Part shown: in pieces, positions 17,221-57,269 of the stretch
Numbering within the stretch: position 1 is the first letter of the stretch
How the letters are laid out: every line of letters begins with the position of its first letter
NCBI GenBank assembly: GCA_964537505.1
Contig: CAZICK010000007.1
Location: 311-64,310, forward strand
Origin: an uncultured Pirellulales bacterium
Lineage (GTDB): Bacteria > Planctomycetota > Phycisphaerae > Sedimentisphaerales > SM23-30
Direction of reading: 5' to 3'
DNA: 64,000 nucleotides
Made by a program: the position numbers and the translations under genes
The notes under the pieces: generated by a model
The model's database searches: none
Told to the model about the DNA's origin: nothing
Seen by the model: the letters and a program-made list of their open reading frames with translations, nothing else

Positions 17221-17685
17221 ATGAGCGTGGGTCTTATTGTATCAAAACTGTTTGGTAACAATGCCGCTGCAGTTCAAACGGTAGCGGCAGCTTTCGTTGT
17301 TGTCGCGTTGAATGTGGGCACTATTTTGATGTTTGACGCTGTCAGCGGAGACCCTCAGTCGGCAGAGGGAACAGATACGATTGCCGCAATATCTGAAGGA
17401 TCGATCCCTGAACAGCAGGTAACCGTGGAGCCTGAGCAGGTGGAGGCTGTTATTATGGTTGACGGTGGCGGATGTGTAGGTATCGGCGAAGAAATGATCT
17501 CCGATGGCGACGGTGATGAAGGTGTCCAGGACTCCGGGCAAGATCAACAGAGGGATTTTGAGCGGGGGGAGGAATCATCCGGTTCGGATACGGAACCGGT
17601 AGAGATTACTGATCAGGGCAGCGTAACATCGGAGGTGCGTGTTCCAGAACGGCTTTTGGACAGAAGCCCATATCAGCCACCGTAA
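17221..17685 (+). CDS. Hypothetical acidic protein with N-terminal membrane anchor (first ORF of the polysaccharide cluster)
   Basis: 154-aa ORF with a hydrophobic N-terminus and a D/E/G-rich remainder. No recognisable family. Coding status rests on ORF length and position only. Confidence 0.4.
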   Translation: MSVGLIVSKLFGNNAAAVQTVAAAFVVVALNVGTILMFDAVSGDPQSAEGTDTIAAISEGSIPEQQVTVEPEQVEAVIMVDGGGCVGIGEEMISDGDGDEGVQDSGQDQQRDFERGEESSGSDTEPVEITDQGSVTSEVRVPERLLDRSPYQPP

Positions 17686-17697
17686 TAGAAACGTCGT

Positions 17698-18888
17698 GTG
17701 AGACAAGTGATGAAACATGGATGTTTAATTAGTGTTCTTGCAACGGGAATGAGTTTTGGGATTGGCTTGTTGCTTGTTCCAGGGTGTGGTTCTGCGCCGG
17801 CCGATATGGCGATATGGCGAAGCCGATCTTTGTCCGGGGTTCATAATATAGATTTGCAGAGCAACAAGAACTCAAATGTTTCGGTTGTGGAGAAATTGTA
17901 CCAGTTTGAGCGTGCCGGTCCTATTCGGCCGACTACAGATGTATCCGAGTTGATGAGGTCACGGCGAGTTACCGGTGGTTTGTACTGTGTAGTGCCTGGG
18001 GATGTGCTGGAGTTTCGGATGCCGGCGATATTACGGGTGGTCACGCCGGAGATGATCGATTCACTGGGACAGATAGAGCCTTATATTTGCCGGGTCACCT
18101 CATCGGGTACGATACCGATTCCCATCGTTGGGTCGATTATGGTGGCCGGTAGAAGTATCGATCAGGTTGAAGCGATGATCGCAAGTGCCTACCATCCGAA
18201 ATACGTTAATATGCCTCCTGCGGTGGTCGGCAAAGTGGTCAGCTATCGGGAAGCGAGAATTTCTATTCTCGGTGCAGTTAACGAACCAGGCAGTTACCTT
18301 TGTCACAGCGACGAGATGACGCTTGTCAATTTGATAATGAAGGCGAAAGGGATTGTGAACGATGGAGCCGCAGTGATTCGTATTTGTCGTGCCGGCGACG
18401 CTAACGGGAACAATACTGTAGTGTTGCCCGTTAAGGGATTGAATATTCCGTTTGCGGACGTGGCTTTGAACGAAGGAGATATTGTCGAAGTCGAGCAGCT
18501 CAACCCACAGGTATTTACCGTTATCGGTCTTGTTAACAAGAGCGGTGTTTTTTCTTATCCGCCGGGTGTGAGATACAATCTGATGCAGGCGTTGGCTTTT
18601 GCGGGTGGAGTCAACAAGATTGCCGCCCCGCGTTACGCGAGGGTGTACCGTCAATGTGCCGACGGTAGTGTAATTTCGGCGTCTTTCCGTCTTAAAGGCA
18701 CTTCGCCTGAGGATGCAGCCAATCTTGTCATTAAGCCGGGCGATATTGTTGCGGTTGAGCAAACGTTCAGTACTCAGACGCGATTACTTTTTGCCCAGAT
18801 ATTTCGTGTTACTACTGGTCTTAACGCTTTTGCGACGTATCGTCTTGATACGTCTTTTGAAGATGCTACCAGCAGGAGCAATGATTAG
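17698..18888 (+). CDS. Polysaccharide export protein (Wza/OPX family, SLBB repeats)
   Basis: Lipoprotein signal 'LLLVPGCGS'. 'VVPGDVLEF', 'SSGTIPIPIVGSIMVAGRSIDQVEAMIA', 'ISILGAVNEPGSY', 'FTVIGLVNKSGVF'. Start is GTG 17698 or ATG 17710. Confidence 0.8.
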   Translation: MRQVMKHGCLISVLATGMSFGIGLLLVPGCGSAPADMAIWRSRSLSGVHNIDLQSNKNSNVSVVEKLYQFERAGPIRPTTDVSELMRSRRVTGGLYCVVPGDVLEFRMPAILRVVTPEMIDSLGQIEPYICRVTSSGTIPIPIVGSIMVAGRSIDQVEAMIASAYHPKYVNMPPAVVGKVVSYREARISILGAVNEPGSYLCHSDEMTLVNLIMKAKGIVNDGAAVIRICRAGDANGNNTVVLPVKGLNIPFADVALNEGDIVEVEQLNPQVFTVIGLVNKSGVFSYPPGVRYNLMQALAFAGGVNKIAAPRYARVYRQCADGSVISASFRLKGTSPEDAANLVIKPGDIVAVEQTFSTQTRLLFAQIFRVTTGLNAFATYRLDTSFEDATSRSND

Positions 18889-18960
18889 GAGCAGTAGAAG
18901 CGTTTGGTTTACGCATGTATATAAAAAATATGGCAGGTGAGATGTGTGTGAGTAGTTAAT

Positions 18961-21258
18961 TTGAAGTCTTACAAGGCTAAGACAATTGAAAACGAAAGCC
19001 ATTTAGTATCAGTTCCGAGAACCGGTGAGTTTTTCGGCGAGGGGCTGATTCATGTAATATGGCAGCGTAGATTGATTGTACTGCTGGCCGTGGTCATTAC
19101 GGTCGGAGCGACTCTTGTCTATCTGACCCGTGTCACGCCCGTCTATACGAGCACTTCGCGGCTATATGTGGAGCAAACCGGTCCTGAGATCATCACCGAG
19201 CAGGAAGGGGTTATGACCCAATCGAAGAACTATCTGCACACCCAGAAGGAATTACTAAGATCGACGCCGATTCTTGCTCTCGTCGCAGACGATCCGGCCA
19301 TCAGGCAGATGAAAACATTACGCCGGGTCAGTAATATCATTGCTTATCTGAAAGGGAGACTGAATGTTACCGTCGGCAACAGAGACGACCTTATCAGTGT
19401 TTCGTTCGATAGTCCGTATCCCCAGGAGGCGGCTCAACTGGTCAATGCGGTAGTGGATTCCTACATTACTAATCAATCTACCAGCAAGCGCAGCAGTTCC
19501 AGAGACGTGCTGAAAATACTCTACGAGGGCAAGGTCCGGCGTGATAAAGAATCAGACGAAAAGCTTCGCGCCTTATTGGAGTTTACCCGCGTCAACGGGG
19601 TTATATCTCTGGAAAACAGTGACGACAATATTATCGTGCATCGTCTTGGTCGTCTCTGCGATGTTCTGACGGAAGTCCAACTGGAAATTATGGCGGTCAA
19701 AGCAGATTATATCGCTGTCAACGCGATAATGGGTGACGCTGAGCAAGTTAAACACTTTCTCAATTCCCATCGTGGTCAGGGCGAGTATCTGTCTTCGAGG
19801 AGCCAGTACGATCAACTGGGCAAAGAGATGGATGGGCTTCAGGAGCAATTGAAAACTCTGCTGCAGTTGGGTACTTGCGATCTTCCAGCCGTCCAGACAA
19901 TCGAGATAGAAATTGCTCGACTGAAACGACGTATTACCGAGGAGGAAAACAACCTTATCCAGGGATACCGGGCCTTTCTTGTCCAGCGGTGGACCGCTGC
20001 CCTGCAAAAAGAAGCGGGAATTCGTGATTCTCTGGAAAAGCAGCAGAAGCTGGCATTGGAGCTTAACGCCAAGGCGGCGGAATATGCCATGCTGAAATCG
20101 GACCTCGATCGGTCCAAGAAGTTATGTGATGAGATCGACAATCGCATCAAGAATTCCAACGTAACCGAAGATACCGGCGCTCTTAATATCAGCATTGTGG
20201 AAATAGCGCGTCCCGCAGATCGTGCTACGTTTCCCCAGAAAGATCGCTTTGTGGCGGTATCGTTGGTTTTGGGACTGATGCTGGGGCTGGTTCTGGCGTT
20301 GTTGTGCGACTGGATGGATCATCGGCTTCGCAGCGCCGATGAGATTTCTGTTTTGCTTGGGGTGCCGGTGCTTGGCGCCGTTCCCACCATGTCTGGGAAT
20401 GAATCGAACCTGACCCGAGGCCAAAAGGTATTTCTTGAGCCGGTTTGTCCGGCGGCCGAGGCATATCGTGCGATTCGCACCGCCATTTATTTTGGCGCAG
20501 GCTGGGACAAGGTCAAGACGATTCTGGTTACGTCTGCGTCAGAAGGGGACGGCAAAACCACGGTCATCAGTAATTTGGCTGCGGCCATGGCACAGTCCGG
20601 TCAGCGTACACTTATTATCGACGCGGACTTCCGCAAACCGATGCAGCACAAGATTTTCAAGATTAATCGGCTTGACGGTCTCTCTGGTGTGCTGTCCGGG
20701 AAGTGTCAACTGGATCAGGCCATTGAGTCCACTGTTGTTAGCGGTCTGGATATACTGCCAAGTGGCGTGGTGACAGCCAATCCCTCAGAAATGCTCAGCA
20801 GTGGGGGGTTCATGGGTGTACTTGAAGAAGTTTCTCAAATGTATGATCGGATACTTATCGACTCCCCCCCGGTTCTGAACGTTACCGACTCCTGTATCCT
20901 GGGAGCGATATGCGATGGGGCCGTTTTGGTGGTTCATGCAGAAAAGACCGCCCGCAAGTCCGCTGAGCAGGCCTGTGATAATCTGTTTAGTGTTGGGACA
21001 AATGTACTTGGAGTAGTGGTTAACGATGTGTCCCCTGCCAAGAATCGTTATGGTTATTACGGCAGCTACAAATACTATTCGTACCGCTATGGGGACAGTT
21101 CTACTGGCAGAGAATCACCAGAAGATATGTCTCCAAAACCCGTAGTAATCAAGACGCAAGCGGAAAATATCAATCAGTACCGCGGTCCGTCTCGAAATGA
21201 AAAGAAACTGTCAAGGTCCAGCGGGACGGCAAAAAGCGATACCGACAAGAATGAGTGA
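18961..21258 (+). CDS. Polysaccharide co-polymerase / tyrosine autokinase (Wzc/GumC-like, Wzz domain plus BY-kinase)
   Basis: 765 aa with a TTG start. Two TM segments flank a coiled-coil periplasmic domain. Walker A 'SASEGDGKTTV', 'IIDADFRKP', and a C-terminal tyrosine cluster 'RYGYYGSYKYYSYRYG'. Confidence 0.85.
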   Translation: MKSYKAKTIENESHLVSVPRTGEFFGEGLIHVIWQRRLIVLLAVVITVGATLVYLTRVTPVYTSTSRLYVEQTGPEIITEQEGVMTQSKNYLHTQKELLRSTPILALVADDPAIRQMKTLRRVSNIIAYLKGRLNVTVGNRDDLISVSFDSPYPQEAAQLVNAVVDSYITNQSTSKRSSSRDVLKILYEGKVRRDKESDEKLRALLEFTRVNGVISLENSDDNIIVHRLGRLCDVLTEVQLEIMAVKADYIAVNAIMGDAEQVKHFLNSHRGQGEYLSSRSQYDQLGKEMDGLQEQLKTLLQLGTCDLPAVQTIEIEIARLKRRITEEENNLIQGYRAFLVQRWTAALQKEAGIRDSLEKQQKLALELNAKAAEYAMLKSDLDRSKKLCDEIDNRIKNSNVTEDTGALNISIVEIARPADRATFPQKDRFVAVSLVLGLMLGLVLALLCDWMDHRLRSADEISVLLGVPVLGAVPTMSGNESNLTRGQKVFLEPVCPAAEAYRAIRTAIYFGAGWDKVKTILVTSASEGDGKTTVISNLAAAMAQSGQRTLIIDADFRKPMQHKIFKINRLDGLSGVLSGKCQLDQAIESTVVSGLDILPSGVVTANPSEMLSSGGFMGVLEEVSQMYDRILIDSPPVLNVTDSCILGAICDGAVLVVHAEKTARKSAEQACDNLFSVGTNVLGVVVNDVSPAKNRYGYYGSYKYYSYRYGDSSTGRESPEDMSPKPVVIKTQAENINQYRGPSRNEKKLSRSSGTAKSDTDKNE

Positions 21259-21260
21259 AA

Positions 21261-23834
21261 ATGAATAGTAAAATGTTATCAGAAGACATCGAAAATAATT
21301 TGAAGGCAACCGACATGCCGGTTTCGTCAGAACAAGTATGCCTGTTTGATCGTGTCATCGAAGCTTTGATGATCGGTCTGTTGTTTTTCATGCCTCTTGC
21401 CCTTGGAGTCGTTCATGCCTGGAGCGAGCAGGTAATTATTGTGTTTGCCGGCGCCATGGCGTTTTGTCTGGCTCTTAAGTTTGCTGTCAGGAAAGAAGCC
21501 AAGCCGGTCTGGACGTGGGCATATATACCGATGGTACTGTTTGTCCTTGCGGTTGTTATTCAACTGGCGTCTCTTGGCAGCCGGCTGGTGAGAATCGTCT
21601 CGCCCAATACCGCGGCGATGAAAACGGCTCTCCTGGGCGATCTGCCCAATATGCCCGAGATACGAGATTCAATGACGCTGAGTTTTTATCCCTGGGCGAC
21701 CGGTCGTGAACTGTGCCTGGTCCTGGTGGTGGTGACGGTTTTTATCGTGGTAGTCAACGTTTATCGCAGCGAACAACAGATCAAGCGGTTGCTGGGCGTT
21801 ATTGCCCTGGTCGGCGGCGGCATAGCGGTGCTGGCCCTGGCGGGCGGGCTGTTCGGCAACGGTAAGATTTACTGGTTGATACCTTCAGGTCATAAGGTTA
21901 CATACTCGGGTTCCTTCATCAACCATAGTCATTACGGTCAGTTTATGAATCTTTCAATTGGCGCAGCTTTTGGGTTGTTGTTGGTAAAACTGCAGGAAAA
22001 GTTTTCGCACCACAGGATTAAGTCGCCTATCGCTGTAACGAGATCGGACAAAGGCGGTATGCGAGTTGTCTGGCTTTTGACGATAATGATCATAATCGGC
22101 ATCGCTAGTATTTTCGCTTCGCTGACGCGTGGGGGCATGATTAGTTTTCTGATTGCCGGGGCCTTTACAACGATAGTCTTAACCAGGAATCGCCGACCGA
22201 ACGGTCGAAACTGGATTATGGCTGTGATAGCATTGGGAGCGTTTGTCTGCATACTCTATGTCGGTTTCGAGGCGGTATATGATCGGCTGGCTACCTTACG
22301 GGATGTGGACAAGTACGAAGACCGCTGGGGCGTTGTCAAGGACCTTATACCGTTGGCGTGTCAGTTTCCTCTTTTGGGTACGGGTCTGGGTTCGCTGGAA
22401 ATGGTCTATCAGATATTTGACAGATCGATGAGTTCCAAGCTGATGGTTCATGCGGACAATGAGTACATCCAAACGATAGTAGAGATGGGTATGATCGGCA
22501 TGAATCTGGTGGTAATTTTCGCGGTTATTGTCTGGTACAATTATTACCGCATTGTCAGGCATGTTCGTGTGCCGATCCGCTGGGCGGCCTTTGGTCTGGG
22601 ATTTGGCGTTTTGGCAGTAATGCTTCACAGCTTTAGTGACTATGGTCAACACGTGCCGGCCAATGCGTGTTTGTCGGCGGTGTTCTGCGGATTGATAATC
22701 AACCTGGCCCGTATGGGCCGCGGTCGTCAGGATGTCGGTGTAGATAATGAACCGCAAGTACAAGTTGCTGTCCGAGGCGGTTGGCGTTTATTGCGTGTCG
22801 GTCTGCTTATTAGTGTGGCGGCTGGGTGGAGCTGGTTGCTGGTTGGTGCCGACAAGGCCCGCAGGGCTGAGAGTTGCTGGAAACAGGCACTGCAAATCGA
22901 GAATAAACTTACCGCCGTCAAAACAGATTCCGGGACCGATCAGACGGATCACAAATGGCAGGGCGGCAGTGAAGAATATGCCGCCTTAATCCAGTATGCG
23001 TTAAAGGCCGTTTGTTATCAACCTCATAATGTTAAATACAGATATTGGCTGAACGTTTATCGGTGGCAATCCCTGAGCCGGGAAGATATCAGTTCAACCG
23101 AGTATAACAATGTCACGGCCCAAATCGTTGCCGATTTTCACCACAGCCGTGCATTGTGTGCGACATTCGGCCCGACATATTGTCTGGCCGGTCAGTTGGA
23201 AAAGTATATTTTGGGTTCTCCGGCGGGCGCCAAACATATTCGGCAGGGTTACTATCTGATGGGCAATGACGCTACGGCCTGTTTTACCGCTACGTTGCTG
23301 GATGTAGAGGAAGGTCGCTTTGCGGAATCGCTGAGGAAATTTCACCGCTATCTGCTGTTAAAAGGTTCGTTTGACGATGTGATCGATGTTTACGTTAATC
23401 AAGAAGATCGGCCGGACCTGGCGGTTTCTGCCGCGGGGAATGATGTCCGTCGTCTTATTTGTTTGTCAACGGTTCTGGAACGCAGCGATAAGCATCGTAA
23501 TCTGGCGGAAACGATACAAAAAAAGATTATTGACCTGCTCAAAAGACAATGCGAACAATCGGACGTATCGGCAGCGACGCTGGCTTATCTGGCGCGTGTC
23601 TATTACAAACAGGAAAAATATGATTTGGCAATAGAGTATTTTCGCCAGGCGATTGCCCTTGATTATGGGCAGGTCCAATGGCGAATATCGCTTGCCCGGA
23701 TGTTGGCTGAGGTGAATCGTGTTCCCGAAGCAATCCACGAAGCGCAGGTGTGCCTGCGGCTGGAGCCGCAGATGGAAGCGGCCAAAAAATTATTGGCGAG
23801 TTTGGCCGTTATACCCAACGCACGGACGAATTGA
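21261..23834 (+). CDS. O-antigen ligase/polymerase-family membrane protein (Wzy_C) fused to a large C-terminal TPR domain
   Basis: Polytopic N-terminal 500 aa with 'HADNEYIQTIVEMGMIG' (a Wzy_C-type motif). The C-terminal ~340 aa are TPR-like. Start is ATG 21261 (or GTG 21255, overlapping the Wzc stop). Confidence 0.75.
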   Translation: MNSKMLSEDIENNLKATDMPVSSEQVCLFDRVIEALMIGLLFFMPLALGVVHAWSEQVIIVFAGAMAFCLALKFAVRKEAKPVWTWAYIPMVLFVLAVVIQLASLGSRLVRIVSPNTAAMKTALLGDLPNMPEIRDSMTLSFYPWATGRELCLVLVVVTVFIVVVNVYRSEQQIKRLLGVIALVGGGIAVLALAGGLFGNGKIYWLIPSGHKVTYSGSFINHSHYGQFMNLSIGAAFGLLLVKLQEKFSHHRIKSPIAVTRSDKGGMRVVWLLTIMIIIGIASIFASLTRGGMISFLIAGAFTTIVLTRNRRPNGRNWIMAVIALGAFVCILYVGFEAVYDRLATLRDVDKYEDRWGVVKDLIPLACQFPLLGTGLGSLEMVYQIFDRSMSSKLMVHADNEYIQTIVEMGMIGMNLVVIFAVIVWYNYYRIVRHVRVPIRWAAFGLGFGVLAVMLHSFSDYGQHVPANACLSAVFCGLIINLARMGRGRQDVGVDNEPQVQVAVRGGWRLLRVGLLISVAAGWSWLLVGADKARRAESCWKQALQIENKLTAVKTDSGTDQTDHKWQGGSEEYAALIQYALKAVCYQPHNVKYRYWLNVYRWQSLSREDISSTEYNNVTAQIVADFHHSRALCATFGPTYCLAGQLEKYILGSPAGAKHIRQGYYLMGNDATACFTATLLDVEEGRFAESLRKFHRYLLLKGSFDDVIDVYVNQEDRPDLAVSAAGNDVRRLICLSTVLERSDKHRNLAETIQKKIIDLLKRQCEQSDVSAATLAYLARVYYKQEKYDLAIEYFRQAIALDYGQVQWRISLARMLAEVNRVPEAIHEAQVCLRLEPQMEAAKKLLASLAVIPNARTN

Positions 23835-24101
23835 CCCGGGAAACCGGGATGTTGTTGATGATGTTAAAATTCAGGTTTCGGATGCGGATGTATCGAACCT
23901 GAAAAAATAGCGACGAAGGCCCCGGCTTGTCAGGGTCGCAAAAGCGCCGAGAGCGAAGATGGCCTGACACCGACGGGGACGGAGTTTGCCCCGATCGGCA
24001 TCGTAGATTACAAGTTTTATGTTTATATTTGTTGTGGCCGATCACTGAGACGTGCAGTTTGAGTTTGCAACACATTGTTTTTTTGTAAAGGATGGATTTG
24101 T

Positions 24102-25646
24102 ATGACTACTTATTTGCTTGTTTATTTCGGATCGGTTCTGCTGGCAGCCTTGTGCACTCCTGTGATGATATTTGCCGCCCGCTCACTGAATATCTATGAT
24201 GACATGAATGTTCGCAAGGTGCATGCCAAGGCAATTCCGCGTATCGGCGGCGTAACAATTGTGCTGTCAATGCTGGGGTTGACAATACCAGTTCTTATGC
24301 TGAATAATTTTGTAGGCAAGAGTTTTCGTGAGGTTCAGCTCAAGATAATCGTACTGTTGGCCGGGGGCGTTTTAGTTTTTGCGATGGGGCTGGTCGATGA
24401 TCTGTGTCGTTTGAGGGTTCGCACAAAGTTTCTGTCGCAACTTGTCGTAGCCGTGGCGGTATGTGCCTTCGGCATTCGCATAGAAAGCGTTTCTTTGGTC
24501 GATTGGTTTACGCTTTCTTTCGGCTGGTTTTCCTGGCCGATCACGATTTTATGGATTGTCGGTATTACTAATGCTGTCAACCTGATCGACGGTCTCGATG
24601 GATTGGCGGCCGGGATTTCCGCCATTGCCTGTGGCGTCATTGCGGTGTTTGCCATTTATTCGGGACAACCGGTCATGGCGGTACTGATGCTGGCGTTGCT
24701 GGGCAGTCTTACCGGATTTTTGTTTTTCAATTTTAATCCGGCGAGGATATTTATGGGTGACTGTGGCAGTATGTTTCTGGGTTTTATGTTGGCGACGTCC
24801 AGCGTTCTGTGCGCTACCAAGAGCGCGACGTTTGTGGGCCTGGCCCTTCCGACACTGGCTTTAGGGATACCTATTTTCGATACTCTTTTCAGTATGCTGC
24901 GTCGTTTTCTGGAACGGCGTTCGATTTTCTCTCCGGACCGCAGCCACTTTCACCATCGATTGCTCGATATGGGACTGCATCAACGTCATGTGGTCCTTCT
25001 AATCTATACTTTGACGCTCGTGATTGCGGGCCTGGGAATGTTCATGATGGCTACGCGTAATACCGGTACGATTGTCATATTTATCTGTGCACTGGTTTTG
25101 CTGCTGCTGGTGTTTCGGATATTCGGCGCGGTACGGCTGGGCGAGATCATTAATAAGCTGCAGCACAACCGGAATCTGGTCATTCAAACCAAAGGAGACA
25201 AGCGTGATTTCGATATTGCTCAACTACAGCTTCGTTTGGCCGTCACGTTCGACCAGTGGTGGCATGGAGTTCAAAGTGCCGCTGACCGAATGGAGTGTTC
25301 CTGGGTGATGCTACCTCTTCAAAGTCGCGACGGAAGTAAAAAGACACTGCTGTGGCGCAGCAAGGGGCCGGAACCAGCTCCTGAGAAGCTGCTGGAAATG
25401 ACCTTACCCTTACGCCAGCGACGCGCCAACGAATCGTTGCGGATAGTAGTGGCTGTCAAGGTTAACGGTTCTCTGGAATCGGCCGGCAATCGTGCGGCGC
25501 TGTTCAGCCGTCTTATCGATGAACACAATCTGGAAAACCTGTCCACGGCGGTACCGGATATCAATTGGCTGGAAATTTGGACTGGACAATCAAGTTCCGG
25601 CGATGCCGTCAAACCTTCAAAACGAAAATATATTACCATTAGCTGA
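24102..25646 (+). CDS. Polyprenyl-phosphate hexose/HexNAc-1-phosphate transferase (WecA/MraY family) with a ~170-aa C-terminal extension
   Basis: 'NAVNLIDGLDGLAAG' and 'FMGDCGSMFLGF' motifs in a polytopic membrane domain. The soluble C-terminal tail has no recognisable family. Confidence 0.8.
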   Translation: MTTYLLVYFGSVLLAALCTPVMIFAARSLNIYDDMNVRKVHAKAIPRIGGVTIVLSMLGLTIPVLMLNNFVGKSFREVQLKIIVLLAGGVLVFAMGLVDDLCRLRVRTKFLSQLVVAVAVCAFGIRIESVSLVDWFTLSFGWFSWPITILWIVGITNAVNLIDGLDGLAAGISAIACGVIAVFAIYSGQPVMAVLMLALLGSLTGFLFFNFNPARIFMGDCGSMFLGFMLATSSVLCATKSATFVGLALPTLALGIPIFDTLFSMLRRFLERRSIFSPDRSHFHHRLLDMGLHQRHVVLLIYTLTLVIAGLGMFMMATRNTGTIVIFICALVLLLLVFRIFGAVRLGEIINKLQHNRNLVIQTKGDKRDFDIAQLQLRLAVTFDQWWHGVQSAADRMECSWVMLPLQSRDGSKKTLLWRSKGPEPAPEKLLEMTLPLRQRRANESLRIVVAVKVNGSLESAGNRAALFSRLIDEHNLENLSTAVPDINWLEIWTGQSSSGDAVKPSKRKYITIS

Positions 25647-25720
25647 AAGTAGAAGACTGGTTGTCTGTGCTGAAGACTACGGCAGTTCAAATTGGGCATA
25701 AATATTTTGACGGGGCAAAC

Positions 25721-27212: not shown

Positions 27213-27337
27213 AGTTTGAGGAGCCAGAGATGGTTGACGTATCCGATGATTATGCTGCGAATAAGTACGCTACCGGGTCGTGCGATGCTTTACGGTCTTC
27301 CAAGGCGATCCGAGCAACACAACCAGACGAAAAAACA

Positions 27338-30263: not shown

Positions 30264-30419
30264 CCGTCCGGCAGCAAAATGTGCTGTATGTATATCCATA
30301 CCGAATGAAAATGCCAAGTAGTAAAGGTTATATTTACATAAACTATAAGGCTTTACAATTGGCCCTGTCAGGCGCAGTGACACCCATTGGGTATAGAACC
30401 TTAGGATAGTAAGAACAAT

Positions 30420-33035: not shown

Positions 33036-33111
33036 AGATTACATACTGTTCTGGGGATTACTCGCTGTTTTGGAGAGGTAGTTTGTTGAATTTTTCAAGA
33101 GCAGAAATTTC

Positions 33112-42111: not shown

Positions 42112-42132
42112 AACAAAAGGAAAAATACGGTA

Positions 42133-43958: not shown

Positions 43959-43982
43959 ACCGGCAAGGGAAACAAACTGAAA

Positions 43983-45996: not shown

Positions 45997-46035
45997 GATT
46001 CTATCTCGCGTTTTCTCGTTGAGTTATTGGTCACA

Positions 46036-47040: not shown

Positions 47041-47055
47041 CTGGGTTTAAAACTC

Positions 47056-49463: not shown

Positions 49464-50217
49464 ATCAAAATCTGACAAGGCAGATTACTTACTGTACGAA
49501 AAAACCGCCAAGACATACGACCGCCAACGATTTACCGGAAGGGCCGGGGAATGGGGGCATAATCGACAGATTTCAATACTGCAAAGCCTGGCTCAGGATT
49601 GGCAAGACAAAAAGGTACTGGAAATAGGATGTGGGACGGGTAGAATAACCGAGGTTCTCGCTCGCTGGGGAGCTGATGTCACTGCTACAGATATAAGCGA
49701 AGAAATGCTGAAAGTCGCGCAAACACGCTTCAGCAGTGACCGGGAGCTTCCGATGCCAAAATTTCGAGTTATGTCGGTATTTGATATCGATATGGATTTG
49801 CAGGAATATGATTATGTGATAATGGTGAATGTCCTGGGGCGTCTCTCACACGCTCGCGAGGCAATTCGGAAAATATCTTTGAACATATCTAAAACATGCA
49901 GGTTTGTCTTCACGTTTCCTTCTCTCACAAGCATTTTGCTGCCGTTTGGCCTCACGGTCAATCTTCGTGGCAAAAGTCTTGCTCGTGATGTGACATCGCA
50001 CTGGTACACGCCAAAAACAATTGAAAAATATTGCAACGATGCGGGCCTTGTAATTGTTGGATGGCGTGGAAACCACTATGTTCCAGTCCCCCGCTTACTT
50101 TTCCCGACACTTCCATTGTTTTGGATATGCGACAAATGCCTCGCTAAATCTTTCCCTAAGAAATGCCCAAGTGTTTTTGTTGTGTCCAGGCTTTGGTCAG
50201 CAGATAGGCCCGGTTAA
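49453..50217 (+). CDS. Class I SAM-dependent methyltransferase
   Basis: 'VLEIGCGTGRITEVL' and 'YDYVIMVNVLGRL'. Overlaps the upstream stop. Confidence 0.8.
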   Translation: MNSESKSDKADYLLYEKTAKTYDRQRFTGRAGEWGHNRQISILQSLAQDWQDKKVLEIGCGTGRITEVLARWGADVTATDISEEMLKVAQTRFSSDRELPMPKFRVMSVFDIDMDLQEYDYVIMVNVLGRLSHAREAIRKISLNISKTCRFVFTFPSLTSILLPFGLTVNLRGKSLARDVTSHWYTPKTIEKYCNDAGLVIVGWRGNHYVPVPRLLFPTLPLFWICDKCLAKSFPKKCPSVFVVSRLWSADRPG

Positions 50218-50239
50218 TCTGTGTTCTTGGAAACGGATA

Positions 50240-51670
50240 ATGGACTTGCCCATGAAGATAGCATTAATCAAACTTCCAGCCACTTATGCTGATTGGTATA
50301 AACAGCCGGCCCTGGGCATAGCGTATATAAGTGCCTGTCTCGAATCAAAAGGTTTTGATTGTAGAATATTCGATGCCTATTTCCATTCCTGGTCGCAAGA
50401 TGAATTGATATGCCGCGTCAAAGATTATAATCCTGATGTGATTGGCGTAACGGCAATGACGCACGAAATTAACCAGGCCGCCCGGGTCGCGGCCGAACTC
50501 AAATCGCTGCTGAACGTTCCAATAGTACTCGGAGGATGCCACGTAACCGCGTTGCCGGCCAAAACACTGGAAGAGTTCCCGGTTTTCGACTTTGGCATCT
50601 GTGGAGAGGGAGAACATACCACCATTGAACTGATGGAATTCCTACAGCAAAAAAGTTCGGCGTCACAACTTGATAATATCAAGGGTATTGTTTTCCGTAA
50701 GCAGGAGCAGGTAATAGTCAACGAAGCACGCCCGTTTATGACCTCCGCCGAGTTGGACGCTTTGCCATGCCCGGCTATGCATCACTACTATTTGGACAAC
50801 CCCCAGGCATTGGCGGCGCGAGATTCCTATTATGTTATGTTTAGCAGCAGGGGCTGTCCCTACAATTGCGCGTTCTGTATGCAGGTGCTGGGTAGAAAGG
50901 TCAGGCGAAGATCACCATTGCGCATTCTTCAGGAGATGGAATATGCTATTGAGCATTTCGGTGCTCATACGTTCAATTTTGCCGACGAAATCTTTCTGTT
51001 CGATAACCGGCAAACACGGGAACTGTTGGAATTATTTATCGAAAAAAACATTCCGGGGCGGATCAAATGGAGCGCCTTGACTCGTGCCAATTTTGTCAAT
51101 TCCGAGTTCATCGTTCTGGCCAAAAAAGCTGGCTGCTACAGCCTGGAAATGGGAGTCGAATCCGGAGACGACGAAATATTGAAAACCATCGACAAGGCAA
51201 TAACCGTTGAACAAGTCGAGCGGGCAGTCAAAATCATAAAGGATGCGGGAATTACGCTTGGCACCTACTATATTCTTGGACATCCGGGAGAAACACTCGA
51301 AACAGTGAAGAAGACATCGAACCTGGCGGTGAACCTGAATACTGATTTTATCGCCATAGGATTAATGGTGCCCTATCCCGGCACCCGAATCTTCGATTTG
51401 GCATTGCAGGGCAGGTACGGCTACCGCCTGCTCTCGCAGGACTGGAGCCAATACGATAAATACGGAGGGAAGGTGCTGGAAATCGAGGGTCTGCCTTACA
51501 GGCAATTATTGAAGTGGCAGAAAAAAACGCTCTTGAATTTATATCTGAAAAACTTCAGACTTATTGATTGCTTTAAGTTCTTTTGGAAAAGGCGGAAAGC
51601 ACTGTGCTTTATGATTAAGAAAAAGATGGGCATCAAAAGGCTTCTTGACCCGCGAGCGAACCCTGCGTAA
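50240..51670 (+). CDS. B12-binding-domain radical SAM protein
   Basis: N-terminal Rossmann-like 'IALIKLP...LGIAYISACLESKGFDCRIFDA...DVIGVTAM', then the radical SAM cluster motif 'SSRGCPYNCAFC'. Start is ATG 50240 or 50252. Confidence 0.85.
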   Translation: MDLPMKIALIKLPATYADWYKQPALGIAYISACLESKGFDCRIFDAYFHSWSQDELICRVKDYNPDVIGVTAMTHEINQAARVAAELKSLLNVPIVLGGCHVTALPAKTLEEFPVFDFGICGEGEHTTIELMEFLQQKSSASQLDNIKGIVFRKQEQVIVNEARPFMTSAELDALPCPAMHHYYLDNPQALAARDSYYVMFSSRGCPYNCAFCMQVLGRKVRRRSPLRILQEMEYAIEHFGAHTFNFADEIFLFDNRQTRELLELFIEKNIPGRIKWSALTRANFVNSEFIVLAKKAGCYSLEMGVESGDDEILKTIDKAITVEQVERAVKIIKDAGITLGTYYILGHPGETLETVKKTSNLAVNLNTDFIAIGLMVPYPGTRIFDLALQGRYGYRLLSQDWSQYDKYGGKVLEIEGLPYRQLLKWQKKTLLNLYLKNFRLIDCFKFFWKRRKALCFMIKKKMGIKRLLDPRANPA

Positions 51671-51699
51671 CTCTCAGGACAATACTCGAAAAGACAAAC

Positions 51700-52965
51700 A
51701 TGTCAGATACCAAAAACTGCCAAAAACCACCTGAACTACTGCTGCTATGCCAACTGTTTTATCCGGAACTTATCTCCACCGGACAAACGCTCACAGAATT
51801 ATGCGAGGAACTGACTGCCAGGGGAATGCGTATAGAAGTAGTTTGCGGCCCGCCCACAATTATGGATCGGAACTCAAAAATCCCCCGACACATAGACCAT
51901 CGGGGCATTCGTATAACCCGCGTGTGGGGCACACGATTCCCCAAACTTAATTTACCGGGTAGAATAATCAACCAGATTACATTTGCCGTATCGGTTTTCT
52001 TCTACCTGTTATTCGACCGCTCGAAACGGCCTGTCATGGTCCTTACCAATCCGCCATTTTTGGCCGTTTCCTGTGCACTGTTGAGAACCCTCAGAATAGG
52101 CAACCCTTACATCTATCTGATTTTCGATGTATATCCCGACACTGCCGTCCATCTGGGCCTGCTGAAAAAAAGAGGACTTCTGACCCGAATCTGGAACCGC
52201 ACTAACGCCTTTGTCTTCAAACATTCCGCCGCTATTATCGTTATTGGAAGATGTATGCGGGACGTGATCGCTGCCAAAATCAAATCCCACGAACGCAATG
52301 GCGAAAAAATTCACAATATCCACGTATGGAGCGACGATCGGTTGATACTATCCGCCAGGGGCAAACCAAACCCGTTTCTGGAAAAATGGAACCTCAAAGA
52401 CAAGTTCGTTGTCGGCTATTTCGGCAACATGGGCCGTTTCCACGACCTGGAAACTATCATGGAGGCCGCCAAAATCCTGAAAGAACAGGAAGATATTGTC
52501 TTTCTGTTTGTTGGTGAGGGCCAGAAAAAACAATACGCGATGGACTTCACCGCTAAATGGCACTTGACCAATTGCAGGTTCCATACCTACGTTGACCGGG
52601 AAAATCTGGGCTTTTCACTATCTACTGCGAACCTCAGCCTTGTATCCTTGTCCGCCGGCCAGGAGGGCCTTTCCGTACCTTCCAAAACTTTCGCATCAAT
52701 GGCCGCCGGCGTTCCAATTATCGCGATCATGTCCCCAAAATCAGAAATTGCTCGAATCGTCGTCGAAAACAAATGTGGACTTGTCGTAGAACTCGATGAC
52801 CACGAAGAATTGGCAAATACCATCTTAAGTCTTTATCATAACCGGAAAAAATTGAAAATAATGGGCGATAAGGCAAGACGGGCGATCGATACCAAATACA
52901 ACCTTCGCTCTGCCGCCCAGGCTTATTATGAGCTAATTGCTAACGTTAATCACCGACCATCATAG
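51700..52965 (+). CDS. Glycosyltransferase family 1/4 (WcaI-like)
   Basis: 'LLLCQLFYPELISTGQTLTELCEEL' N-terminus, 'GYFGNMGRFHDL', 'VPSKTFASMAAGVPIIAI'. Confidence 0.8.
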   Translation: MSDTKNCQKPPELLLLCQLFYPELISTGQTLTELCEELTARGMRIEVVCGPPTIMDRNSKIPRHIDHRGIRITRVWGTRFPKLNLPGRIINQITFAVSVFFYLLFDRSKRPVMVLTNPPFLAVSCALLRTLRIGNPYIYLIFDVYPDTAVHLGLLKKRGLLTRIWNRTNAFVFKHSAAIIVIGRCMRDVIAAKIKSHERNGEKIHNIHVWSDDRLILSARGKPNPFLEKWNLKDKFVVGYFGNMGRFHDLETIMEAAKILKEQEDIVFLFVGEGQKKQYAMDFTAKWHLTNCRFHTYVDRENLGFSLSTANLSLVSLSAGQEGLSVPSKTFASMAAGVPIIAIMSPKSEIARIVVENKCGLVVELDDHEELANTILSLYHNRKKLKIMGDKARRAIDTKYNLRSAAQAYYELIANVNHRPS

Positions 52966-52975
52966 GAGACTAATC

Positions 52976-54001
52976 ATGAAACAGGCTTTAGTTTGTGGCG
53001 CAGGAGGCTTCATAGGATCTCACTTGGCAAAAAGGCTCAAAGAAGAAGGATTTTGGATAAGGGGCGTGGACCTGAAATATCCCGAATTCGGCTCCATAGC
53101 GGCCGATGATTTCGTCATAGGGGATCTGCGCGACCCGGTACTCTGCAGGGACGTAACCGATCGACCATTCGATGAGGTCTATCAATTGGCTGCCGATATG
53201 GGCGGCGCCGGATACATCTTCACCGGTGAGCACGACTCCGAAGTCATGCACAATTCCGCGATGATAAACCTCAACATGGTTGATATATGCTCCAAAATCG
53301 GGGTCAAAAAGATTTTTTATTCCTCGTCCGCCTGTATTTATCCCGAATACAATCAGATGGACCCCGACAATCCAAAGTGTTCGGAAAATTCCGCTTATCC
53401 AGCCGCTCCGGACAGCGAATACGGATGGGAAAAACTCTTTAGCGAACGCATGTATTTGGCCTATCACAGAAATAACGGCTTAAACGTCCGCATCGCTCGG
53501 TTCCACAATATATTTGGCCCGCAGGGATCATGGAACAACGGCAAAGAAAAGGCGCCCGCCGCTCTGTCCCGCAAGGTTGCCGAGGCCGAAATCGGAGGTA
53601 AAATCGAAATGTGGGGCGACGGCAAACAAACACGTTCTTTCCTCTACATAGACGAATGCCTGGACGGCATTCGCAGACTGATGGACTCGGATCTCATAGC
53701 CCCCGTCAACATCGGCTCGGAAGAGATGATATCTATTAATGGCCTGGCCGAAATGATTATGGACATCGCCAACAAAAAACTGAGCATAAAACACATCAAT
53801 GGTCCCCTCGGCGTTCGCGGCAGAAACTCCGACAACGCATTCATTTACGAAAAGCTTGGCTGGAAACCCACCAGACCGCTCAGGGAAGGAATGACAAAAA
53901 CCTACCACTGGATAGAGCAACAGGTAAAAGACAGCCGATCCCAGCCGGCTAGAATCGAAACGATTCGTCCACTCGGCAGAAGAAGACTACTAAAGACATA
54001 A
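52976..54001 (+). CDS. GDP-mannose 3,5-epimerase (GME-like extended SDR)
   Basis: Block-by-block resemblance to plant and bacterial GME: 'CGAGGFIGSHLAKRLK', 'LAADMGGAGYI', 'SSACIYPEY', 'RFHNIFGPQGSWNNGKEKAPAALSRK', 'EMWGDGKQTRSFLYIDEC', 'GPLGVRGRNSDN'. AGGAG RBS before ATG 52976. Confidence 0.8.
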   Translation: MKQALVCGAGGFIGSHLAKRLKEEGFWIRGVDLKYPEFGSIAADDFVIGDLRDPVLCRDVTDRPFDEVYQLAADMGGAGYIFTGEHDSEVMHNSAMINLNMVDICSKIGVKKIFYSSSACIYPEYNQMDPDNPKCSENSAYPAAPDSEYGWEKLFSERMYLAYHRNNGLNVRIARFHNIFGPQGSWNNGKEKAPAALSRKVAEAEIGGKIEMWGDGKQTRSFLYIDECLDGIRRLMDSDLIAPVNIGSEEMISINGLAEMIMDIANKKLSIKHINGPLGVRGRNSDNAFIYEKLGWKPTRPLREGMTKTYHWIEQQVKDSRSQPARIETIRPLGRRRLLKT

Positions 54002-54123
54002 CCACGCCACCGGCCGGCCTTCCCTCGTGTTTTTTCCCGTCCGACAATACGCCAAAGTTGGCGAATTGCGACTGGTTTTGCCGACAATGACAATAGTTGT
54101 GTTGATGTTAAGGAAAATTATAA

Positions 54124-55254
54124 ATGAACATTCTTATATGCGGCAGTTCAGGCTTCATCGGAACACACCTGGTCAAACTGCTGGCGGACAATGGACACGA
54201 AATTACAGGCCTGGACCTGAATATGCCGCAAACTTATGCGGGACTTAGCGATTTCTATCAGGGTGATATCCTGGAAAAACAGGATATTCGTCCCGCTTTA
54301 CGCGGCACGGATTGCGTAATCAACCTGGCCGCCAGGCACAGCGATTTTGGTATTACCCGCCGGGAGTACTTTGAAACAAACGAGACCGGAAGCAGACGAC
54401 TTCTCGAATGTATGACTGACGCTCGCGTTGACAAGTACATATTCTTCAGTTCCGTAGCTGTGTATGGCGATCATCCGGAGGAGGCCGATGAAACCACCCT
54501 ACCGAGGCCGACCAGTCACTATGGCGATTCTAAGGTCGCCGCCGAAAACGTAACTCGCCAATGGGCCAGGGCAAACACTCGAAGGTCTGTTGTGATAATC
54601 AGACCCACACTGGTCTTTGGACCGGGCAATACTGCCAATATGTACAGCCTCATCCGCCAGATCGACCGCGGACAATTTTTTCACTTCGGCTCCGGTCGTG
54701 CAATCAAAAGTCTTTGTTACGTGGAAAATCTCACGGAGGCTACTGACTTTTGCCTCGACCGAATGGCCCCTGGCGTTGCCACATTCAACTACGTGGACAA
54801 GAAAGACCTCGAAGTCAACCAGATGATAGATATTATTTCCGGATCATTGAACAAAAAAGTCCCATCGGTTCATTTGCCTTTATGGTTGGGCCTGGGAATT
54901 GGGCGGGTATTTGACCTCGCCTCGAAACTGACCGGCAGAAACCTGGCGGTTTCCTCCGCACGTGTGAAAAAACTGACCACTCCAACAAGATTCGCCGCTG
55001 GGCTCATCAGAGACTGTGGTTTCCTCCCTCGATACTCCTTGAAAGAAGGCTTGCAAAACATGGTTGACTGGTACACAAACCGCCTCTACGGACGCCCGGA
55101 CTTGGCCGAACAGTTTCAAAAAATATCACAAACTTTACTTGATAAAGATATTGTATTCGATGTCCCACTTATGGTACAATTCCCAGGCCCTGTTGAGATC
55201 ACTGAATATATGCCCAGCCAACCATTGGCAGCGGTGGAAAGGATAGCCAAATGA
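54124..55254 (+). CDS. NAD-dependent nucleotide-sugar epimerase/dehydratase (extended SDR)
   Basis: '[18 protein letters not shown]' and catalytic 'YGDSK'. Substrate not inferable. Confidence 0.65.
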
Positions 55255-56276
55255 CCAAAAAAACTCTTGTCACCGGCATTACCGGGCAGGATGGCAGCTA
55301 CCTGGCGGAACTCCTTCTCTCAAAGGGTTATGAAGTGCATGGCCTGATCCGCAGGTCGAGCTCGTTCAACACTCAGCGCATTGACCACCTCTACCAGGAT
55401 CCGCACGAAACCTCCGCTCGCTTGTTTCTTCACTACGGCGACATGACCGACGGCATCGGTATTCGGGAGGTGCTTACCCGCGTTCAGCCCGACGAGGTGT
55501 ACAACCTTGCCGCCCAGTCGCATGTCCACGTCAGTTTCCATCAGCCCGTTTATACCGCTCAGGTGGGAGCCATTGGCACCATTCGTCTGCTGGAGGCCAT
55601 TCGCGATACCGGGATAAATATCCGTTTCTATCAGGCCTCCTCCAGCGAAATGTTCGGACAGGCAATCGAAACTCCCCAGTCCGAAAAAACACCTTTTCAC
55701 CCACGCAGTCCTTACGGTTGCTCGAAGGTTTACAGTTATTGGCAGACCATTAATTATCGTGAAAGTTATGATATGTTCTGCTGTAACGGCATACTATTCA
55801 ATCACGAATCGCCGCGACGCGGTGAAACTTTTGTCAGCCGAAAAATAACACGCGCCGCCACACGCATCAAGGAAGGGCTACAGAAAAAACTCTACCTCGG
55901 CAATCTCGACGCCAAACGAGACTGGGGATTTACAGGTGATTACGTCGAGGCCATGTGGCTTATGTTGCAGGCCGACAAACCGGACGATTACATAATCGCC
56001 ACTGGCCAAACACATTCGATACGCGAGTTTCTTGACCTGGCTTTTGCTCGACTTGAGATGGACTGGCACGATTATGTCGAAGTTGACCCTCGTTATTTCA
56101 GACCGGCCGAAGTCGATGTCCTGCAGGGCGACGCCTCAAAGGCCAAAAAACTGCTCAACTGGCAGCCCAAAGTCAATTTCGAACAACTCGTTGCTATGAT
56201 GATCGACGCCGACTTGGCTCTGGCCAGACAGGAACGCGTCCTGGCGGAACACAACGCCAAAAATCTTCCTGACTGA
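55251..56276 (+). CDS. gmd: GDP-mannose 4,6-dehydratase
   Basis: '[43 protein letters not shown]', '[11 protein letters not shown]', 'SPYGCSKVY', '[15 protein letters not shown]'. Confidence 0.92.
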
Positions 56277-56315
56277 CACAATGACAGCCCGATTTGTTCC
56301 AAAGGACACTTACCA

Positions 56316-57269
56316 ATGCTCAAGCTCGACTGTGAACGCATTGTCATTACCGGGGGAGATGGTTTTCTCGGCCGGCATCTACAGCAGCAGCTCTTACACA
56401 GTGGCCTCAAAAAAGAAAACCTCCTCATACCACGCATTGAACAATACGACCTTACGAGTGAATCCGCTGTCACCGCCATGTACCGTGACATGCAGCCCAC
56501 CGTTGTAATTCACCTGGCTGCCGAGGTAGGCGGTATCGGCGCCAATCAGGCCAATCCCGGCCGATTCTTTTATGCCAACATGGCTATGGGAATGCACCTG
56601 ATCGAACATGCACGCCTCTACGGCCTGAAAAAATTCGTACAGGCAGGTACCATTTGCGCCTATCCAAAGTTCACCCCGGTACCATTCCAGGAGAAAAACC
56701 TCTGGAACGGCTATCCTGAGGAGACCAACGCCCCTTACGGTATCGCCAAAAAAGCCCTATTGGTTATGCTCCAGGCTTATCGTCAGCAGTATAACCTTAA
56801 CGGCATATATCTGTTGCCCGTCAACCTGTACGGCCCAGGCGACAATTTCGACCTTCAGACCAGTCATGTCATCCCAGCTATGATCCGAAAATTCTGCCAT
56901 GCCGTCGATACCGACGCACAGGAAGTTATCCTTTGGGGTACCGGCTCAGCCAGCCGCGAGTTCCTTTATGTCGAAGACGCCGCCCGCGCAATCACCCTCG
57001 CCACCACCAACTACGACGGCCAAAAACCGGTCAACCTTGGCTCCGGCTTTGAAATCACCATTAAGAACCTCGCCGAAAAAATAAAATCCATCACCGGCTT
57101 CCAGGGACGCATAACCTGGGACACCTCCAAACCCGACGGTCAGCCACGCCGCTGCCTCGACGTCACACAGGCCAAAAACCTCTTCAACTTCACCGCCGCG
57201 ACACCTTTCGACCTGGGCCTCGAACAAACCATCGACTGGTGGCGACTACAACAACCAAATCAGCCCTGA
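56316..57269 (+). CDS. fcl: GDP-L-fucose synthase (GDP-4-keto-6-deoxymannose 3,5-epimerase/4-reductase)
   Basis: '[24 protein letters not shown]', '[10 protein letters not shown]', '[25 protein letters not shown]', '[17 protein letters not shown]'. Confidence 0.88.

Follow-up and report, generated by a model that had tools for sequence, protein, structure and literature searches.

Planctomycetota are usually treated as consumers, not producers, of sulfated glycans, and to our knowledge a gene cluster is known for only a few sulfated bacterial polysaccharides, namely synechan and the products of candidate clusters in Pontiella. Here we describe a polysaccharide locus of an uncultured Phycisphaerae bacterium at 17221-57269 of a 64,000-nucleotide stretch of DNA (the window, i.e. 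positions 311-64310 of contig C7 in a 3.79 Mb genome of 163 contigs that is 93% complete). We consider it probable that this is a modular locus for a Wzx/Wzy-dependent capsule or exopolysaccharide, operating by the full mechanism proposed below, and the polymer built and exported by the cluster would probably be sulfated, methylated and acylated. Such a locus is a richly equipped example of the known Wzx/Wzy sulfated-polysaccharide kind and no new kind of system. With it, anaerobic Phycisphaerae would have a complete, self-sufficient toolkit for a sulfated and heavily tailored polymer and would make such glycans in addition to consuming them.

Among characterised systems, the nearest is the synechan (xss) cluster of Synechocystis sp. 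PCC 6803, in which, as described by Maeda et al. (2021, PMC8205485), Wzx, Wzy, a polysaccharide co-polymerase (PCP), eight glycosyltransferases and two sulfotransferases yield a sulfated eight-sugar repeat, the gene count roughly fitting the composition of the repeat unit. Shared with the window are Wzx/Wzy assembly with a PCP, sulfotransferase genes embedded in the cluster and a large set of glycosyltransferases (8 in xss against 6 and an initiator here), a resemblance in architecture as that paper describes it. The window has one sulfotransferase instead of two and includes Wza and Wzc in the locus, whereas xss has no outer-membrane polysaccharide export (OPX) gene in the cluster and has its own regulators. 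It also has a full module for the supply and recycling of 3'-phosphoadenosine-5'-phosphosulfate (PAPS), whereas no PAPS genes are listed for xss and the words "methyl" and "PAPS" are absent from the main text of the synechan paper. A carbamoyl cassette, an MBOAT/DltD-like pair, six methyltransferases and a B12-radical S-adenosylmethionine (SAM) enzyme further separate the window from xss as described there. Closer in phylogeny, sulfated exopolymers and a candidate cluster have been reported in Pontiella (Kiritimatiellae, of the same superphylum; PMC7356697), and Planctomycetes sulfotransferases were remarked on in a mat metagenome study (PMC9723792).

In its machinery the locus resembles the group 1 capsule and colanic acid loci of Escherichia coli, with which it shares an OPX protein, a PCP-2a tyrosine autokinase, Wzx, Wzy, an initiating transferase acting on undecaprenyl phosphate, the GDP-L-fucose genes gmd and fcl and a WcaI-like GT4 glycosyltransferase. 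However, its initiator is a PNPT (WecA family) and not a PHPT of the WbaP/WcaJ type, it has an additional conserved 859-aa Wzy_C/tetratricopeptide-repeat (TPR) protein and far richer tailoring, and no gene for a Wzb phosphatase was detected in it. For tailoring only, one may compare the Nod factors of Rhizobium sp. NGR234, which according to the account in PMC11681206 (citing Price et al. 1992) bear carbamoyl, methyl (2-O-methylfucose), and sulfate or acetyl groups on one glycoconjugate; common to both are a NodU-type carbamoyltransferase, a PAPS-dependent sulfotransferase, NodPQ-like PAPS genes and SAM methyltransferases. Nod factors are short lipo-chitooligosaccharides made by NodABC and not Wzx/Wzy polymers, and NodA, NodB and NodC are absent from the locus. 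Nonetheless, in view of that account the mix of substituents is not unprecedented, which qualifies a first-pass annotation of the window, made from the letters alone, that knew of no characterised bacterial exopolysaccharide with sulfate, carbamoyl, acyl and multiple methyl groups together. Its related suggestion, that the product has probably not been described, agrees with our failure to find any closely homologous cluster with a solved product.

Frame and variable region

Gene assignments (Table 1) are based on an open reading frame (ORF) listing and on Pfam/NCBIfam profile scans, which place 34 co-directional ORFs within 17221-57269; the first-pass annotation was right about the common direction and slightly off in its count of about 36. 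The overlapping stop and start codons that it had remarked on are found at 8 junctions, most of the others being shorter than 45 bp when gene-caller starts from the sister contigs (see below) are used. The profiles cover every machinery class, many matches lying above curated cut-offs, and thereby bear out the inventory that had been proposed: Wza, Wzc, Wzx and two Wzy/ligase-like proteins; a WecA-like initiator with six glycosyltransferases, five of them clear and one (34465-35547) a weak GT1-like member; genes for sulfation, carbamoylation and O-acylation (the PAPS module, a Sulfotransfer_1 protein, a NodU/CmcH carbamoyltransferase and an MBOAT protein); six class-I methyltransferases and one B12-radical SAM enzyme; and GDP-L-sugar genes. 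Wzx, the initiating transferase and the Wza/Wzc pair each occur once, and motifs are intact in the PNPT, both adenosine-5'-phosphosulfate (APS) kinases, the sulfotransferase, the radical SAM enzyme and the carbamoyltransferase. Since the gene order from cysNC to the methyltransferase gene at 49453 is identical in four independently assembled JGI metagenomes, on contigs of up to 131 kb, the cluster is no assembly chimera or artefact.

What did not survive is the idea of the locus as a single evolutionary unit. The order wza-wzc-wzyC/TPR-wecA-like recurs in the seven relatives whose surroundings were inspected (in G014 the sequence stops short of the wecA-like gene) and in at least 20 of the 80 loci, from Phycisphaerae metagenome-assembled genomes (MAGs), that came out of a WecA-like scan of 185,579 species genomes. 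Orthologues of Wza occupy the same position in relatives (37-61% identity), and 11 of 40 relatives encode an orthologue of the 859-aa Wzy_C/TPR protein (38-51% identity), always with wzc on one side and the wecA-like gene on the other. Wzc exceeds the cut-off of TIGR01007 (202 vs 108 bits) and has a tyrosine cluster, YSYRY, near its C-terminus. The initiating transferase carries the motifs VDD and NAVNLIDGLDGL (pattern NxxNxxDGxDGL), followed by a C-terminal extension of ~170 aa with no Pfam match even at E <= 1; its 592 relatives, 50-61% identical within Phycisphaerae, nearly all come from MAGs with the label Phycisphaerae, Sedimentisphaerales or Planctomycetota, which makes the organism a member of the class Phycisphaerae. 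Downstream of the frame, only generic GT4, GT2 or Gmd similarity to the window was found in the seven relatives. Because the frame order recurs and the downstream genes are different each time, 17698-25646 is best read as a predicted lineage-wide export and initiation frame, and 25661-57269 as a variable region. A conserved four-gene frame with swappable downstream regions offers a handle for mining the glycan diversity of the class. In one relative (G008, contig C13) a homologue, at 43% identity, of the four-helix-bundle gene found at 63024-63395 of the window sits between wzyC/TPR and the wecA-like gene (L034:7875-8216).

The variable region appears to be species-specific. Sister contigs that contain a 96%-identical sulfotransferase gene are 97-98.5% identical to, and collinear with, window positions 42116-58935 and belong to the same species, so that the variable region is kept as a block, collinear at ~98% identity, in independent samples. 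Its Wzy has no relative in the 185,579 species genomes, the only close relatives being on near-identical contigs of the same species, and this leaves no related repeat unit for comparison. The point upstream of the sulfotransferase gene at which a sister contig diverges was considered as a recombination breakpoint and rejected, since the first 137 bp there are a high-copy repeat (97-100% identity), which indicates an assembly break.

Table 1. Features in and around the polysaccharide locus (window coordinates; profile scores in bits, with curated cut-offs in brackets where given)
Position	Strand	Assignment	Evidence or remark
17148-17215		Partial copy (68 bp) of the 180-bp repeat	5' edge of cluster; blastn against genome, 92-96% identity, many copies
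17221-17685	+	Doubtful ORF, 154 aa	N-terminal hydrophobic helix, acidic low-complexity tail
17698-18888	+	Wza, frame gene 1	Poly_export, SLBB, SLBB_2 above cut-off
18961-21258	+	Wzc-type PCP-2a co-polymerase with BY-kinase domain, frame gene 2	Wzz, GNVR, AAA_31
21255-23834	+	Wzy_C/TPR membrane protein, 859 aa, frame gene 3	PF04932 64.6; C-terminal TPR
24102-25646	+	WecA/MraY-family polyprenyl-phosphate sugar-1-phosphate transferase, frame gene 4	PF00953 145 (27)
25661-26554	+	CysQ-like 3'(2'),5'-bisphosphate nucleotidase (PAP recycling)	Inositol_P 188
26526-27212	+	CysC APS kinase	NF003013 272.6 (163); P-loop GLSGSGKS
27203-28240	+	CysD sulfate adenylyltransferase small subunit	NF003587 466.7 (195)
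28269-30263	+	CysN-CysC fusion (sulfate adenylyltransferase large subunit and second APS kinase)	NF004035 941.9 (715)
30291-30395		Dispersed repeat, ~105 bp	cysNC-carbamoyltransferase gap; 17 other copies, 78-88% identity
30420-32255	+	O-carbamoyltransferase (NodU/CmcH/TobZ family), cassette gene 1	Carbam_trans_N, Carbam_trans_C
32276-32701	+	SxtJ-like polytopic membrane protein, 141 aa, cassette gene 2	Weak PF19588 match
32705-32821		Dispersed repeat, ~115 bp	Between cassette genes 2 and 3; 30 other copies, 88-93% identity
32826-33035	+	DUF5989 membrane protein, 69 aa, SxtK position, cassette gene 3	PF19451 71.7 (27)
33112-34443	+	Wzx flippase	Polysacc_synt (PF01943) 57.9 and Polysacc_synt_3 (PF13440) 52.8, both above cut-off; MatE
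34465-35547	+	Probable GT-B glycosyltransferase	Glyco_trans_1_4 34, Glycos_transf_1 29; C-terminal half recognisable
35590-36423	+	Class-I SAM methyltransferase a	Methyltransf_11 84
36444-37184	+	Class-I SAM methyltransferase b	Methyltransf_23 43.7
37142-38677	+	MBOAT membrane O-acyltransferase (DltB/AlgI-like)	PF03062 107
38685-39635	+	Membrane-anchored DltD-like SGNH-fold protein, 316 aa, putative extracytoplasmic MBOAT partner	
39705-40682	+	Class-I SAM methyltransferase c	Methyltransf_23 89.6
40666-42111	+	Wzy_C protein, 463-481 aa	PF04932 39.8 (31.7)
42133-42957	+	PAPS-dependent carbohydrate-type sulfotransferase	Sulfotransfer_1 (PF00685) 80.6
43029-43208		MITE-like insertion, 180 bp	Sulfotransferase-methyltransferase gap; at least 25 full-length copies in genome
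43242-43958	+	Class-I SAM methyltransferase d	Methyltransf_25 65.5
43983-45122	+	GT4 glycosyltransferase a	Glycos_transf_1, Glyco_transf_4
45103-45996	+	GT2 glycosyltransferase	Glycos_transf_2 101; start taken from sister contigs
46027-47040	+	Methyltransf_24 methyltransferase e	PF13578 42.4; strongest compositional outlier
47056-48243	+	GT4 glycosyltransferase b, HpsP-like	Glycos_transf_1 117; HpsP 210, below cut-off
48240-49463	+	GT4 glycosyltransferase c	Glyco_trans_1_4 83.5
49453-50217	+	Class-I SAM methyltransferase f	Methyltransf_25 58.5
50246-51670	+	B12-binding (class B) radical SAM enzyme	B12-binding, Radical_SAM; CPYNCAFC
51700-52965	+	GT4 glycosyltransferase, WcaI-like	Glycos_transf_1; NF007640 141.7, below cut-off (276)
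52976-54001	+	SDR1, GDP-mannose 3,5-epimerase (GME) homologue	Predicted GDP-L-galactose/L-gulose supply
54124-55254	+	SDR2, extended SDR epimerase/reductase	Epimerase 141; best solved structure MoeE5, 87
55251-56276	+	GDP-mannose 4,6-dehydratase (Gmd)	TIGR01472 542 (415)
56316-57269	+	GDP-L-fucose synthase-like (Fcl-like) epimerase/reductase	NF047922 277, best match, below cut-off (500)
57350-57405		Fragment of the 180-bp repeat family	Other cluster edge
57430-58488	+	ThiF/MoeB adenylyltransferase, outside cluster	ThiF 255.6
58619-58691	+	tRNA-Asn, directly after ThiF, just past 3' end of locus	ARAGORN and Rfam

Proposed pathway and its alternatives

The substrates, the order of the steps, the product and the action of all tailoring enzymes on one polymer are, in the scheme that we infer from the gene content, as follows. 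The WecA-like enzyme would start the repeat unit on undecaprenyl phosphate, and the six glycosyltransferases would extend the lipid-linked unit, from donors that probably include GDP-L-fucose and GDP-L-galactose or GDP-L-gulose. A cytoplasmic sulfotransferase would add sulfate from PAPS made by the adjacent CysD, CysN-CysC and CysC, with the by-product 3'-phosphoadenosine-5'-phosphate (PAP) cleared by CysQ, and up to six SAM methyltransferases and the B12-radical SAM enzyme may modify the sugars. The three-gene carbamoyltransferase cassette would probably carbamoylate a hydroxyl of the same glycan. Wzx would flip the unit over the membrane, the Wzy of the variable region would polymerise it, the MBOAT protein and its DltD-like SGNH partner would O-acylate the polymer outside the cytoplasm, and the Wza outer-membrane channel with the Wzc co-polymerase/tyrosine kinase would export it. 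The repeat unit is predicted to have seven sugars and to carry four or five types of substituent.

In the sulfation module, the gene product at 25661-26554 is termed CysQ-like since CysQ is its best NCBIfam match at 164 bits, below the cut-off of 229, and in the CysN-CysC fusion both P-loops are intact, that of the second APS kinase reading GLTGSGKS. The sulfotransferase has a 5'-phosphosulfate-binding motif (PRSGTTW) and a 3'-phosphate-binding motif (RNPIDRAYS); its closest solved structures are the bacterial 3rnl and then heparan-sulfate 3-O- and N-sulfotransferases, and after the one relative at 96% identity the next best reach 53-55%. Sulfotransfer_1 genes were present in 72 of 151 genomes sampled from the class, and another relative has its own sulfotransferase gene ~10 kb downstream of the frame; sulfated products are probably recurrent among loci of this frame type.

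The carbamoyltransferase matches PF02543 (337.8 bits) and PF16861 (236.5 bits), has the motif HHESH and aligns over its full length with GdmN, NovN and TobZ (E 1e-73 to 1e-91). It is followed by a 141-aa protein that scores 17 bits against the SxtJ profile PF19588, below the cut-off of 24.4, with 97 of 99 profile positions aligned, and the gap 32702-33111 contains the 69-aa DUF5989 gene. The order is that of sxtI-sxtJ-sxtK in cyanobacterial sxt clusters, and the sizes are similar (carbamoyltransferase ~611 aa, membrane protein ~135-141 aa, small membrane protein ~55-69 aa), in which the two small proteins have been proposed to act with the carbamoyltransferase (PMC2679770, PMC2684587). Here, by contrast, the three genes stand in a polysaccharide locus without any further sxt gene, and the SxtJ match is below its cut-off. 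The three-gene order is kept in four relatives (G036, G039, G025 and G007), in which the 141-aa protein has orthologues directly after the carbamoyltransferase (48-61% identity) and DUF5989 ORFs stand at the same position (40-62% identity).

One may also consider a composite locus that yields fewer types of decoration, the carbamoyl cassette, the PAPS module or both being general-purpose and serving another glycan, a lipid or the products of TPR-sulfotransferases encoded on contig C9. While we hold this to be rather doubtful, several observations speak for it and weigh against a single polymer made by all parts of the cluster. APS kinases of this genome were found only in the window (a second cysDN pair, on contig C1, has no kinase), and C9:16089-24046 encodes a 1989-aa ORF with an N-terminal TPR region and three Sulfotransfer_1 domains, next to a 687-aa ORF with a fourth, all of which would depend on the window APS kinases for PAPS; for this reason the PAPS module may be a genome-wide supply, not dedicated to this polymer. 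In none of the 80 loci does cysQ, cysC, cysD or cysN follow the wecA-like gene. Carbamoyltransferase orthologues occur in 12 of 40 relatives (61-80% identity), and the six relatives inspected show no shared synteny around the gene and no frame near it, while in the window the cassette is bounded by gaps of 156 bp and 76 bp and flanked by repeat insertions. With regard to base composition, GC content is 0.492 for the genome, ~0.50 for the frame, the PAPS genes and the carbamoyltransferase, and 0.44-0.49 for the central tailoring genes, but 0.341 for the Methyltransf_24 gene and 0.404 for the MBOAT partner; the low values (0.34-0.40) of these two genes point to a patchwork origin, in which co-function of all parts is not guaranteed. 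Insertions resembling miniature inverted-repeat transposable elements (MITEs) inside the operon could moreover be polar, and substrates of the class-I methyltransferases are not assignable from sequence.

On the other side, the variable region does contain a sulfotransferase gene, which the sister contigs retain, 96% identical, along with the rest of that region, and the cassette is co-directional with its neighbours inside an operon-like array. The carbamoyltransferase gene stands directly after the frame in another Phycisphaerae MAG and after a WecA-like gene in an Omnitrophota MAG, and its neighbours in relatives include an SGNH/GDSL-TPR protein and a GDSL-plus-AlgX protein, types that themselves modify glycans. 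In view of these contexts we softened an earlier opinion that the carbamoyltransferase is an unrelated housekeeping gene. The cassette looks like a unit that moves independently and is found repeatedly in glycan settings. Thus the carbamoylation gene predicted by the first-pass annotation is real, and it may plausibly act on this polymer, although in relatives the cassette sits at other genomic places.

Returning to a single Wzx/Wzy-dependent polymer, the locus has two proteins of the Wzy_C (O-antigen polymerase/ligase) superfamily, for which the PF04932 cut-off is 31.7 bits. Both had been recognised from the letters alone as Wzy/ligase-like, but one of them belongs to the frame and is probably not the repeat-unit polymerase. 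That role likely falls to the Wzy of the variable region, since the long Wzy_C/TPR protein is conserved independently of what the variable region encodes and since two relatives (G008 and G013), like the window, have a Wzx and a small Wzy_C protein (410-440 aa in these relatives) of their own downstream of the frame. The Wzy_C/TPR protein could perhaps perform a ligase-like step, or one tied to a conserved reducing-end sugar set by the WecA-like enzyme. A related alternative is that the locus makes two glycoconjugates, the Wzy_C/TPR protein being a WaaL-like ligase or the polymerase of a conserved glycan, so that the repeat unit is both exported as capsule and ligated to a lipid or protein anchor. 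The presence of two Wzy_C proteins, the conservation of the long one and the further 770-820-aa Wzy_C paralogue encoded elsewhere in each relative inspected would all suit it. Yet the Pfam Wzy_C profile does not discriminate between ligase and polymerase, the locus lacks genes for a lipid A-core or an acceptor and Wza/Wzc systems normally export one polymer, and we regard this alternative as unlikely.

The B12-radical SAM enzyme belongs to a large family (>2700 homologues at E <= 1e-30, with 57-82% identity across Planctomycetota, Chloroflexota and Omnitrophota). Among solved structures it has only remote relatives, with AprD4 (75 bits) ahead of TsrM and TokK, and our literature search found no paper that ties cobalamin radical SAM enzymes to polysaccharide biosynthesis. 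All three orthologue contexts inspected are glycan or nucleoside diphosphate (NDP)-sugar loci: one among GT2 and lipid-glycan genes, one, in a Chloroflexota genome, between a phosphoglucomutase gene and two genes for NDP-sugar pyrophosphorylases (sugar-1-phosphate nucleotidyltransferases), and one in the middle of a GT4/GT2/methyltransferase cluster. Judging by these neighbourhoods, it represents an uncharacterised family residing in glycan loci across phyla, and we consider it the most interesting single gene of the cluster; the DltD-like MBOAT partner and the carbamoyltransferase/SxtJ-like/DUF5989 cassette are the other poorly known enzyme families that the locus brings to attention. That this enzyme and several of the methyltransferases are merely co-located and work on something other than a glycan, for instance a lipid or a small metabolite, is very improbable: the radical SAM enzyme does match BchE, HpnJ and a lipid-biosynthesis enzyme best among NCBIfam models (all below cut-off) and the class-I methyltransferases do weakly match quinone, fatty-acid and arsenic methyltransferase models, but the former has its orthologues (62-69% identity) among glycosyltransferase or NDP-sugar genes in every context inspected and the latter are interleaved, and partly overlap, with glycosyltransferase genes. 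For the N-terminus of the Methyltransf_24 protein no Pfam match was obtained even at E <= 1.

For O-acylation of the proposed polymer, the MBOAT protein has DltB as its best NCBIfam match (166 bits, below cut-off). The protein encoded next to it has no Pfam, NCBIfam or meaningful PDB sequence match; its ~90 homologues, all unannotated, share an invariant GGSN, two Asp and one His, and in two distant loci a homologue has an MBOAT gene either immediately upstream or two genes upstream. In the first of these loci, the pair is accompanied by genes for an acyl-carrier protein and KAS III, a hint that in some members of the partner family the acyl groups are delivered by a carrier. An AlphaFold2 model built from 40 sequences has a pLDDT of 92, and the top eight Foldseek matches in PDB are all DltD (probability 0.99-1.00, with a modest TM score of 0.29-0.39), followed by SGNH esterases, OatA and PatB; identity to DltD is only 11-15%. 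As in DltB/DltD, PatA/PatB and AlgI/AlgJ/AlgX, an MBOAT protein is thus followed by a membrane-anchored extracytoplasmic SGNH protein with conserved Ser, Asp and His, and from the model the pair would work like the acyl transfer of DltB/DltD, PatA/PatB or AlgI/AlgJ. What sets it apart from those systems is that no Pfam model exists for the family of the partner. Nor does it form a Dlt operon, since the DltA ligase and the DltC carrier are absent (none of the 34 ORFs has an AMP-binding or PP-binding domain).

The genes for GDP-L-sugars that had been predicted are present in differing degrees of certainty, Gmd lying above its cut-off and the Fcl-like protein below. SDR1, one of four nucleotide-sugar enzymes of the short-chain dehydrogenase/reductase (SDR) type in the locus, matches Arabidopsis GME (2c59) with 332 bits (E 3e-98), the next family reaching 114 bits, and together GME, Gmd and the Fcl-like enzyme are predicted to supply GDP-L-galactose or GDP-L-gulose plus GDP-L-fucose. 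A more speculative picture, which we would not call likely, is that of a fucoidan-like L-fucose/L-galactose polymer, at once sulfated, poly-O-methylated, O-acylated and carbamoylated, in which one sugar is altered by a class-B radical SAM enzyme of a general glycan/NDP-sugar tailoring family.

Repeats, gaps and edges of the locus

The genome contains MITE-like dispersed repeat families of about 180, 115, 105 and 137 bp, and several copies lie in or next to the cluster, with a further patch at 58849-59091. The 180-bp element at 43029-43208 is missing from two contigs that are 97-98.5% identical to the window and present in the JGI contigs, i.e. this cluster copy is polymorphic between near-identical populations. 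In the cassette, the junction between genes 2 and 3, which is ~20 bp in relatives, is split in the window by the ~115-bp repeat.

Four of the larger gaps had been suggested as sites of internal promoters. Those at 30264-30419 and 42958-43241 are largely taken up by repeats, whereas 23835-24101 and 54002-54123 are unique sequence and remain candidate regulatory sites. Promoter-like sites were not clearly above shuffled sequence (30 vs 22.9 +/- 4.3 and 40 vs 32 +/- 5.5), with a consensus that does not cover Planctomycetota promoters, and terminator-like sites were somewhat above it (37 vs 22.0 +/- 4.3 and 30 vs 21.8 +/- 4.8) but weak and mostly intragenic, so these scans cannot place promoters or terminators. 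In an Rfam scan no riboswitch or leader was detected, the tRNA-Asn gene being the sole match.

At the 5' edge, the ORF at 17221-17685 has no Pfam or NCBIfam match even at E <= 1 and no tblastn match among relatives, and may not be a true gene. At the other edge, collinearity with the sister contig stops at 58935, ~250 bp past the tRNA-Asn gene, in the repeat patch. Over the window as a whole, cumulative GC skew peaks at ~50000-51000, the sign of the skew being changed for the remainder.

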